Positions 32,601 to 35,600 of a stretch of DNA of 47,972 nt are shown here, piece after piece. Positions within the stretch are counted from its first letter, which is position 1, and each line of letters starts with the position of its first letter. This DNA is from a virus (taxonomy: Duplodnaviria; Heunggongvirae; Uroviricota; Caudoviricetes), in the IMG/VR virus record IMGVR_UViG_2531839374_000006; one strand, given 5' to 3'. Position numbers: made by a program.

Positions 32601-35600
32601 ACCTGTTCGATGGTGTCTGTATGGTTCCATACCCTCTTATTGCATATGCGAGACTCATTCTTACCTCCCATCTTACCGTTATCACCGTGTAGTGACACTG
32701 TTACATCCATGTATAAATGCTTTGATACTATGGCTATACCATTAAAATAAGTTTACCGGAAGACTTTGATCAACTACTTTTCACACCAGATACACAAATA
32801 ATGTGAAACACAACATAGAAATTGTCAAAACCGCCGGGTGGCGGGTGCGTTGAGGATGCCTGACACATCAGAGGTGGCGGGAGATTACTCCCCCACCTGG
32901 TCTCTTACTCCTCAGGTTCGTAGACTGTGAAGACAGCGACCTCCGTCTGGCCGGTTCGGATTCGTACCTCGCAGAGGTCTTTCCTCGTTACCAGTGCCGT
33001 CACTATGACGGTTAAACAGATGACGATCAGGGCGATTAACATCGCCTTTTGCTGCTTCATAGCCTGCTTCTCCTTGCCTTTCGGCACGTAAGAGGCTAAC
33101 CTACGTTTGTGAAGCATAGATTGGGCCTCAGATTAATGTTAAGCGTCTTGCAGGACGCGTAATGTTAACTGGGGCTTTTCTCTATCTGCCTTTTGGTGTT
33201 CATGCCTGAGGCAGATAGCCTCAAGCACCCATTATGATTTTAACCAAAGTCTTTATATCTATAAAGAGGCACAATATTACTCGATATATCATCATGTGTG
33301 CGCCTTATTCCAAACATTTTGGAAACAAAGCGTTCCCTCACTCCCGACATATCCAGTATCTGCTTCCAAGAAGATATATCCAGCAATTCAACTGCACAGG
33401 AAAGTAAGCGAGGTTTTTCCTCAGGGATTAACTCATCCCCCATCTCTCCTTTAATCGTCCCTCTTTTATTTAGATGGATAAATCCCGTTCTCATTTGTTG
33501 TGGCGTAATCAGCCCCAAAACCGTAGCACGATAAATACACATGCGAAGACTGATTTTCCATCGTTCTTTGAAATTAATTAGTGCATTCCAGTCAAGATGC
33601 GATCCTCGCATTTTAGGAAATTCATTAACGAACGAAACTCTAGGTACAAGGAATGCGCTCGAAAAATAATCCGCATGATGTTCTGTAATTTTATCCCCTG
33701 TTATAATCCCTTCATGCAAAACAAGATGCCCCAGTTCATGACCGAGATCTGAGCGAAATCGACACACACTCTTTTTCGCGGAATTTCTAATTATCAATGG
33801 GCGTTTACTATTAATAGTAAACGCATCAATACGATCATCCACGCCAGATACATGAGCAACAACAACCCCAATACTTTCCACGAAATTAACCATTGAAGAT
33901 ATCGGTCCCAGCCCCAACCCCCAATACCTTCTACAGGCCTCGGCAATTCTTTCAATATCTTCATCGGAGTTCAAAGGTAATCCGGACGTATCAGGAAAGT
34001 TCAATTCTGGAAGAACTATTTCTGTTTCCAAACACTTTACAAACTGCTCCAAAATTTCAGCTCGAGCCAGAATACTATTAGTTAAGGACTGCGTCCTTGA
34101 TCTCTTGCTTCTGAAATGGCAGTTCTCGCTGTCTAATGGTGATTTCCTTCCAGTGAAGAAAAACGACTCTTTAACATCCAGATAATCTGCAAGAGCTGTC
34201 AACATCTGAGATGAAGGGGGATAACCACGCTCTAACTTGTTTATAAATTGCCGAGTCACCCCCAAAGCAGTAGCAAGCTCTTCGCCCGTAACCCCTTTAG
34301 CCTGACGAGCTAATTTTAAGCAGTCACCACGATAATTACCTATAGAATCAAATAGTTCCATATTTATCACTATCTGCTTTTTTCGCATTCTTAACACGCC
34401 GCTGCAAATTCAGCGGTGGTGTTTCCACGGCCTCTGGCAATACGTCAGTATTAGCTGCTTGTACTGGAGCATGGACTTTAGACACCAATTCGTATCTACT
34501 CACTACATTATTTGATGAATCAAAACCTATCAGGGCTAAAAGCCACGTTGGAGGTTCGATATCTTCATCTTTTTTATTTGCAGATGGTAATTTTTCAGCC
34601 AGAACACGCCATGTAACATCATGTTCAAAATTAACATCATCTTCAAAAAGAGATAACTGACGACACTCAACATCATTTTTACATAAGCGATGTTTCTTTT
34701 TTGGTGAATCCAGTTTATCGGTCACAAACTGTAACGGCACCCTGTTCAGGGTAAACACAAAATTCAGAGGTGTTGAAAGAATCGCCACTCCTTTGAGTTT
34801 TTTATGATTTTTTACAAGAAAGTTTTTTATCCATCCATAGGCCCTACATCCATTAATCCAGTTATCATCATACTCATGGCGATGGAACCATAATTCGCCA
34901 AGTACGTTAGCAAATTGCTGAAGAAGATTGATAACAGATTTTTCATCCAAACAAGGATTGATTTCAAAACACGGTTGGAGATTCTGTTCAGACGGCATAA
35001 GGTATCCCTCTCTCTTAAAACTCCGCTCATCTTTACGCAAAATTTTATTTTTGTAAACCTAATCTTTGGGGTATTTCACGAATTCGTCAACCAGTTGAAC
35101 GAACTTTAACCACAATACATATTTATCTACATTGATATGAGTATCGCTAACACTATTGTGGGCATTCAGCTAAATAGCTGCGCTTAATACCGCTACACTT
35201 TTGCCAGTCCATGTTTGCCTCCGGGGAATGGGCTGACGGTTTCCATAAAATGGCGAACTTTTTTCAACAGTTGCCACATTGAGCGGCACTGATGATTACG
35301 CGTTATTGTGTCGTGAAGTGCCTGCCATAGCCGTTCAACATGATTCACCCATGGCGAGTAAACCGGCTGATAAATGCCCCTGAACTTCGGGTTCTCCTTC
35401 AGCCAGCTCTGTGTTTCCCGGCTTTTGTGGATAATGTAGTTGTCCACGATCAGCGTGATGGTTTTCGCCCGACGGTATGTCGCTTTAAGCCGCTTCAGCA
35501 GGCTGATGAACAGCGCCGAACTTTTGCTGTTGCCGCCCACATAGCTGACTTTACCTGTCCCGCTGTGCAGCGCTCCGGCCAGATAATATTTTTCATTCTG

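Follow-up and report, generated by a model that had tools for sequence, protein, structure and literature searches.

The 47,972-nucleotide (nt) stretch of viral DNA analysed here as a whole (the window; IMG/VR record IMGVR_UViG_2531839374_000006, Caudoviricetes) carries a two-gene cassette, rmrT-rmrA, that is very probably a member of RosmerTA, a system in which a Zn-peptidase antitoxin is paired with a toxin of unknown function (Millman et al., 2022, 10.1101/2022.05.11.491447). Both open reading frames (ORFs) lie on the minus strand, and all coordinates below are those of the window. The downstream gene encodes an RmrA protein that joins a helix-turn-helix (HTH) to an M78 peptidase with an HExxH zinc site, its partner falls within a catalogued RmrT model, and the two genes form an adjacent, co-oriented and conserved pair. 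By analogy with characterised members, RmrT would probably be the toxin and RmrA the antitoxin. For the overall interpretation, a RosmerTA toxin-antitoxin and anti-phage cassette working by the mechanism proposed below, we estimate a probability of about 70%. The first-pass annotation had put the pair forward as a candidate novel toxin-antitoxin or defence module. The kind of module is retained, but its novelty is not: both genes match RosmerTA models in PADLOC, and the cassette is therefore another member of a published, catalogued system.

The rmrT gene (34348-34998, minus strand) runs from an ATG at 34998 to a stop at 34348 and encodes a soluble protein of 216 amino acids (aa) with an isoelectric point of 6.6; this ATG was preferred over an in-frame TTG at 35040 on the basis of homologue N-termini, which also back the start of rmrA (33240-34361, minus strand; ATG at 34361, stop at 33240; MELFD...). 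A Shine-Dalgarno sequence, GAGGG, is found 7 nt ahead of the rmrT ATG (35006-35010, minus strand). As originally described, the end of rmrT and the start of rmrA overlap by 14 nt (34348-34361, minus strand), an arrangement consistent with translational coupling that recurs identically in Proteus, Tenebrionicola and a JGI metagenome contig.

The product of rmrA had been read as an Xre-HTH/ImmA-IrrE fusion of about 370 aa with a HELGH site, and this reading was upheld by Pfam, which places HTH_3 at residues 15-67 (34161-34319, minus strand) and Peptidase_M78 at residues 162-279 (33525-33878, minus strand) of a 373-aa protein. Codons for the HELGH zinc site occupy 33726-33740 (minus strand), and its H208, E209 and H212 are invariant in the RmrA alignment. 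The protein matches the PADLOC RmrA model PDLC03943 (E = 5.7e-107) together with 13 further RmrA models, is 30% identical to the RmrA of the verified system of Escherichia coli OLC-716 (E = 2e-36), and is matched over its full length by the NCBIfam model 'spr1629 family repressor/antitoxin' (E = 1.7e-47, under the equivalog cut-off). The capP and capH models of PADLOC match it weakly.

The 216-aa protein had been reported to lack any recognised motif or transmembrane segment. Accordingly, no family was found for it in Pfam or NCBIfam, PHROGs yielded only an unnamed family, a profile search of Protein Data Bank (PDB) sequences returned nothing, and no transmembrane segment was detected (maximum Kyte-Doolittle 19-residue mean of 1.2). 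Its match among profile hidden Markov models (HMMs) is the catalogued RmrT model PDLC03929 of PADLOC, over residues 12-212 of 216 (E = 1.4e-18), and the same model is matched by 96 of 96 full-length relatives (best E = 3e-72). A word-based search recovered only seven clusters of the family (E. coli, Tenebrionicola, Proteus and metagenomes), and an exhaustive profile search raised their number to 126 (clustered at 50% identity), each made up of proteins of about 200 aa.

The pairing of the two genes proved to be conserved across genomes. The RmrA alignment was scanned against 100,044 species, one genome each, giving 534 relatives, and a co-oriented ORF lies upstream in 70 of the best 80 of these, which were examined. 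At the 23 closest RmrA loci, the 216-aa toxin family is found directly upstream in 20 and downstream in none; these closest RmrAs include proteins of Serratia, E. albertii, Pseudomonas, Acinetobacter, Photorhabdus, Stenotrophomonas and Nitrospira. The toxin-then-RmrA order is kept in Proteus prophages, where the slot likewise lies between replication genes and DUF1367, as well as in a Tenebrionicola prophage, in two non-prophage metagenome contexts and in Undibacterium. An intact pair is present in 31 of 5,426 complete E. coli genomes, mostly Shiga toxin-producing E. coli (STEC), in a Rac-like prophage at ttcA, where it is annotated as just 'hypothetical protein' and 'helix-turn-helix domain-containing protein'. 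Among deposited phage genomes, no DNA match to the cassette and no RmrT homologue (tblastn) was found.

Some close RmrA homologues show other arrangements. Two Photorhabdus loci (L048 and L050) have no rmrT upstream, and at one locus each of Photorhabdus (L052) and Acinetobacter haemolyticus (L044) the upstream ORF is only about 100 aa long, the fragment in L044 alone matching the toxin family; these four loci may hold antitoxins left without a partner, or toxins in decay. The rmrT-rmrA pair of one JGI metagenome contig (L009, 3096-4729) adjoins PRTase-CE and NADAR genes in a defence-island-like neighbourhood.

RmrA serves as a hub antitoxin for many toxins, and several characterised systems can be compared with the cassette. 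The system of E. coli OLC-716 has been verified, and its delta-rmrA mutant is not transformable (10.1101/2022.05.11.491447). It shares with our pair a two-gene operon with the toxin first, an RmrA (about 370 aa) in which an Xre HTH at the N-terminus is joined to an M78 peptidase with HExxH, and a toxin of about 220-240 aa that has no Pfam domain and carries a mid-protein QLKLDL; its toxin differs in belonging to model PDLC03935 without detectable sequence similarity, and toxicity and defence are known there, whereas here they are predicted from sequence. In Streptococcus pneumoniae, the toxicity of RipA, which forms a pair with RipB (Spr1630/Spr1629), is suppressed by substitutions in the hydrophobic pocket of the beta sliding clamp (DnaN), and RipB requires ClpX to neutralise it (PMC12795458). 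This pair is likewise of Rosmer type, with the toxin first, an antitoxin (RipB) that is a ClpX-dependent, full-length homologue of RmrA, and a genetic link to the very pocket that we infer to be the target of the 216-aa RmrT. It differs in being chromosomal and competence-linked rather than prophage-borne, with RipA assigned to PDLC03931. Finally, a prophage-borne putative toxin-antitoxin pair makes clpP essential in E. coli E101 (10.1101/2020.05.25.114553); it was later classed by others with RmrT toxins, and Rosmer-carrying Pectobacteriaceae require clpX. The E101_02645/E101_02644 pair resembles ours in being carried by an E. coli prophage and in its gene order, a toxin without domains preceding the antidote. 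Its protein accessions differ (WP_001179380/WP_000481765, against WP_001138877/WP_000418464 here).

The domain content of RmrA is also that of ImmR/ImmA of ICEBs1, DdrO/IrrE of Deinococcus and CapH/CapP of the CBASS anti-phage systems, which combine an Xre-type HTH with a COG2856/M78 peptidase in switches responsive to stress or phage. The pair could thus be no toxin-antitoxin system at all. The HTH-peptidase would then be a prophage switch like ImmR/ImmA or CapH/CapP, and its 216-aa partner a phage accessory protein of no special kind, a possibility that fits the location of the genes in a prophage early region and the label 'transcriptional regulator' given to the family in PHROGs. In those systems, however, the peptidase cleaves a separate repressor to derepress its cargo, whereas in RmrA the two domains are fused in a single chain and the partner is a candidate toxin rather than regulated cargo. 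Furthermore, the pair also travels outside prophages (loci L006, L009 and L015), no regulated cargo such as CBASS or an integrase adjoins it, its neighbours being hok/sok and IS630, and in the closest families the partner has proved toxic by experiment and the antitoxin essential. We accordingly regard this explanation as highly improbable.

How RmrT would act is a separate matter. An AlphaFold2 (AF2) model built from a 54-sequence alignment shows a confident alpha/beta core of two long helices and a six-stranded sheet (mean predicted local distance difference test, pLDDT, of 83; predicted template modelling score of 0.73), with a low-confidence insertion at residues ~100-128 and a disordered C-terminal tail. 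The polar positions conserved in the family are D44, R/Q/K90, E111, Q114, R131 and E135. One reading of the model is that RmrT is a restriction-endonuclease-like, DNA-degrading nuclease of the PD-(D/E)xK fold, possibly tethered through a clamp motif. Nevertheless, Foldseek found no match in the PDB (best E = 0.26), inositol monophosphatases score on a par with most nucleases, and on strands b2 and b3 the family alignments conserve neither D...(D/E)xK nor any acidic residue or lysine, the position at the start of b2 being N in the window protein and D in its closest relatives. The restriction-endonuclease-like fold is therefore kept as a weak lead and nuclease activity is unsupported; we consider such a nuclease improbable.

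The low-confidence insertion offers a different clue. Residues 114-118 of RmrT, Q114-L-S-L-F118 (34645-34659, minus strand), match exactly the published bacterial clamp-binding consensus QL(S/D)LF and form a candidate beta-sliding-clamp-binding motif. They fall in the loop between strands b3 and b4, where pLDDT is low in an otherwise confident model, and the loop is predicted to be flexible and exposed. A Q-phi-x-phi pattern (phi, hydrophobic residue) occurs at the aligned loop in 75 of the 96 family representatives, with L at Q+1 in 50 sequences of this alignment, S at Q+2 in 33, L at Q+3 in 52 and F or L at Q+4 in 38, giving the loop consensus Q-L-S-L-F/L; the density of the motif is tenfold that in the rest of the proteins. 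Its shape is of the pentapeptide type in 39 cases and of the hexapeptide type in 26, the latter including QLSLPL, which we take to be the motif of Hda.

The motif extends beyond the family. A relaxed form is present in 13 of the 23 upstream partners of RmrA that belong to the window family (shuffles, 1.8 +/- 1.2) and in 18 of the 34 partners undetected by the family HMM (shuffles, 2.5 +/- 1.4, maximum 8 in 500), counts that overstate independence because the partner loci are not phylogenetically independent. Control RmrA proteins showed no such enrichment (16 of 79, against 14.4 expected). The partners outside the family form two main clusters, one actinobacterial with DPQLxLPLG and one of mixed phyla with NQxxLF[DE], in which the motif occupies a matching relative position; profile-profile comparison of these clusters with the window family gave weak scores (E = 0.021 and 0.0014), yet aligned them exactly over the motif. 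The verified OLC-716 RmrT, despite its unrelated sequence, carries a mid-protein SQLKLDLD, of QLxLxL shape and followed by acidic residues.

Taken together with the genetic link between RipA and the DnaN pocket, the QLSLF motif leads us to propose that RmrT poisons the sliding clamp and that RmrA, probably with ClpXP, restrains it. There is a precedent in SocB of the type VI system SocAB of Caulobacter crescentus, which binds the clamp pocket through a clamp-binding motif and blocks replication. The likeness is one of functional analogy only, namely a clamp-binding toxin neutralised via ClpXP: the two systems are built from unrelated proteins, SocA being a ClpXP adaptor and not an HTH-peptidase, and the authors of the RipA study report no homology between SocB and RipA (PMC12795458). 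In the literature searched, that study alone links a Rosmer system to DnaN, and its main text reports no clamp-binding motif. RipA itself (243 aa), which we recovered from metagenome contigs through a published primer sequence, belongs to a family whose conserved central motif is Q[ML]EL[VI]SD. Pneumococcal-type ripA was found in 18 metagenome contigs, and its ORF is shortened to 27-94 aa by frameshifts or stops in six of them (L018, L019, L021, L026, L030 and L034), reflecting either frequent inactivation of the toxin or assembly errors.

As a toxic mechanism for RmrT, clamp poisoning is a serious candidate whose odds we place slightly short of even. More tentatively still, the clamp motif may be the shared core of the main RmrT group, comprising the PDLC03929 family and at least two further clusters, such that many RosmerTA systems would be clamp-poisoning abortive infection systems with GGTTGACA repeats as operators. 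With the same reserve, this main group would span Proteobacteria, Actinobacteria, Firmicutes and Cyanobacteria, its toxins having a restriction-endonuclease-like globular domain and RmrA/ClpXP control built around a short DnaN-docking peptide.

Several points weigh against these proposals. The characterised RmrTs, those of OLC-716 and RipA, sit under other models than the 216-aa protein (PDLC03935 and PDLC03931, as against PDLC03929), no similarity to them was detected by BLASTP of the protein against the OLC-716 RmrT or by hhalign of its family against RipA, and neither of the two matches any of the RmrA partners recovered in the genome scan. A toxic or anti-phage role for the PDLC03929 subfamily is thus argued by analogy from other RmrT families. 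Toxin mechanisms, moreover, differ within RosmerTA, as the system of Gordonia phage Kita, also verified against phage, has a toxin that acts on membranes. With respect to the motif, about 20% of family representatives have no recognisable form of it, the RipA version is similar to, but outside, the strict clamp consensus, and AF2 draws part of QLSLF as a helix. In this genome, the IS630 element upstream could alter expression of the cassette.

A further objection is that the loop could serve a shared partner other than the clamp. The system would then still be RosmerTA, but QLxLF would be a docking or cleavage site for RmrA, or a degron for ClpX, and toxicity would come from the globular domain. 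RmrA is the sole partner common to all of these toxins, a motif shared by dissimilar toxins would suit a hub antitoxin or protease, and dependence on ClpX or ClpP has been reported for Rosmer pairs. The motif, however, fits both known clamp-binding shapes in detail, and the RipA suppressors fall in the motif-binding pocket of DnaN. Cleavage by RmrA is also disfavoured in that, to our knowledge, ImmA/IrrE cleavage sites are unlike QLSLF. This is the main alternative to clamp poisoning, and we judge it rather unlikely.

Regulation of the cassette is suggested by its upstream region, where a tandem direct repeat of about 33 bp, GGTTGACA-N17-AAAGAT (in full, nGGTTGACAAA-N10-(T)GC(A/G)-N-AAAGAT), is conserved. 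Two TTGACA-like cores lie 30-36 nt apart and within 150 nt of the start codon at 15 of 21 family loci, whereas 1000 shuffles average 0.05 such loci and never exceed 2. In the window, unit 1 (GGTTGAC-N18-AAAGAT; 35062-35092, minus strand) is a candidate promoter and RmrA operator, with a -35 element TTGACG, a 17-nt spacer and a -10 element AAAGAT, and it is a good sigma-70 match in every clade (for example, TTGACA-16/17-TAGAAT or TATAAT). Unit 2 (GGTTTAC-N18-AAAGAT; 35029-35059, minus strand), a candidate second promoter and operator, is displaced 33 nt downstream from unit 1, to around +1 to +30; in the window, a lineage-specific 32-nt leader that contains the Shine-Dalgarno sequence comes after it. 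The position of unit 2 and the frequent absence of its -10 element resemble the two operators of an autorepressor, and we give even odds that the tandem repeats are RmrA operators.

An inverted repeat, TCAAC-TG-GTTGA, had earlier been pointed out as a possible operator. The repeat exists (35087-35098), but the role assigned to it was rejected for want of conservation and of any excess over chance: the 174-nt upstream region holds four 5+5 inverted repeats with spacers of 0-10 nt, against 2.4 +/- 1.9 in shuffles, 24% of which reach four, and a 99.6%-identical E. coli relative free of the insertion sequence (L001) has TCGAC as the left arm. Its right arm, GGTTGAC, falls inside the conserved direct repeat.

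Assembled from these elements, the proposed mechanism runs as follows. Transcription of the operon would start at a sigma-70 promoter belonging to the cassette (unit 1 and, in this lineage, unit 2 too), and the HTH of RmrA would bind the two GGTTGACA repeats, about three helical turns apart, resulting in autorepression. RmrA would hold RmrT harmless by binding it, by the action of its M78 peptidase, or both, with ClpXP probably assisting as in other Rosmer pairs. Inactivation or titration of RmrA, upon phage infection or loss of the cassette, would free RmrT, whose exposed QLSLF loop would dock in the protein-binding pocket of DnaN. Replication of both host and phage DNA would be blocked by the occupied clamp, leading to abortive infection or growth arrest.

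RosmerTA is widespread and its toxins are annotated as being of 'unknown function'; the conserved motif offers a mechanism that can be tested by mutation. If the clamp mechanism is right, it would tie together the DnaN suppressors of RipA, the essentiality of ClpX or ClpP in Rosmer strains and the SocAB paradigm, and would mean that prophages of pathogenic E. coli encode a natural high-affinity clamp ligand. For annotation, a 'hypothetical' and an HTH protein in 31 complete STEC and other E. coli genomes become a named defence or toxin-antitoxin module. The present analysis adds to what was known of the system a conserved candidate operator and promoter architecture, in place of a guessed operator, and a putative clamp-binding-type motif, read from sequence, for a toxin family previously without a mechanism.

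The insertion sequence noted just upstream in the first-pass annotation is indeed there: IS630 (1153 bp; 35173-36325, minus strand) lies 174 nt before the rmrT ATG, flanked by a TA target duplication (35171-2 and 36326-7) in a CTAG target. It inserted at the CTAG stop codon of a truncated upstream ORF, left both repeat units intact and severs the cassette from upstream prophage transcription. The IS630/rmrT junction is absent from the 5,426 complete E. coli genomes, so that the stretch may derive from Shigella or from an E. coli lineage outside that sample.

The cassette is likely an autonomous two-gene 'moron' of a Rac-like lambdoid prophage, with the replication module on one side and the hok/sok-DUF1367 (late-regulatory) genes on the other. 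The hok/sok locus, a type I toxin-antitoxin system (32905-33230, minus strand), begins 10 nt past the rmrA stop, with the hok ORF at 32905-33117 (Pfam HOK_GEF, E = 6e-22) and the sok RNA at 33055-33230 (Rfam, 120 bits), so that two addiction or defence-type modules stand back to back. Between hok and the DUF1367 gene (31631-32685, minus strand) are a 77-aa ORF (phrog_9843) and a 272-aa ORF (phrog_3630) with hydrophobic stretches in its N-terminal part, neither with a significant match in PADLOC, Pfam or NCBIfam. The same slot holds just one 213-nt hypothetical gene in L001; it is a variable moron slot, possibly with another accessory or defence cargo. Elsewhere in the prophage, Rfam identified the RalA antitoxin small RNA (Rac-type RalR/RalA) at 46989-47167 and a C4 antisense RNA with isrK at 42124-42312, and a cluster of four tRNA genes is found at 29561-29868.

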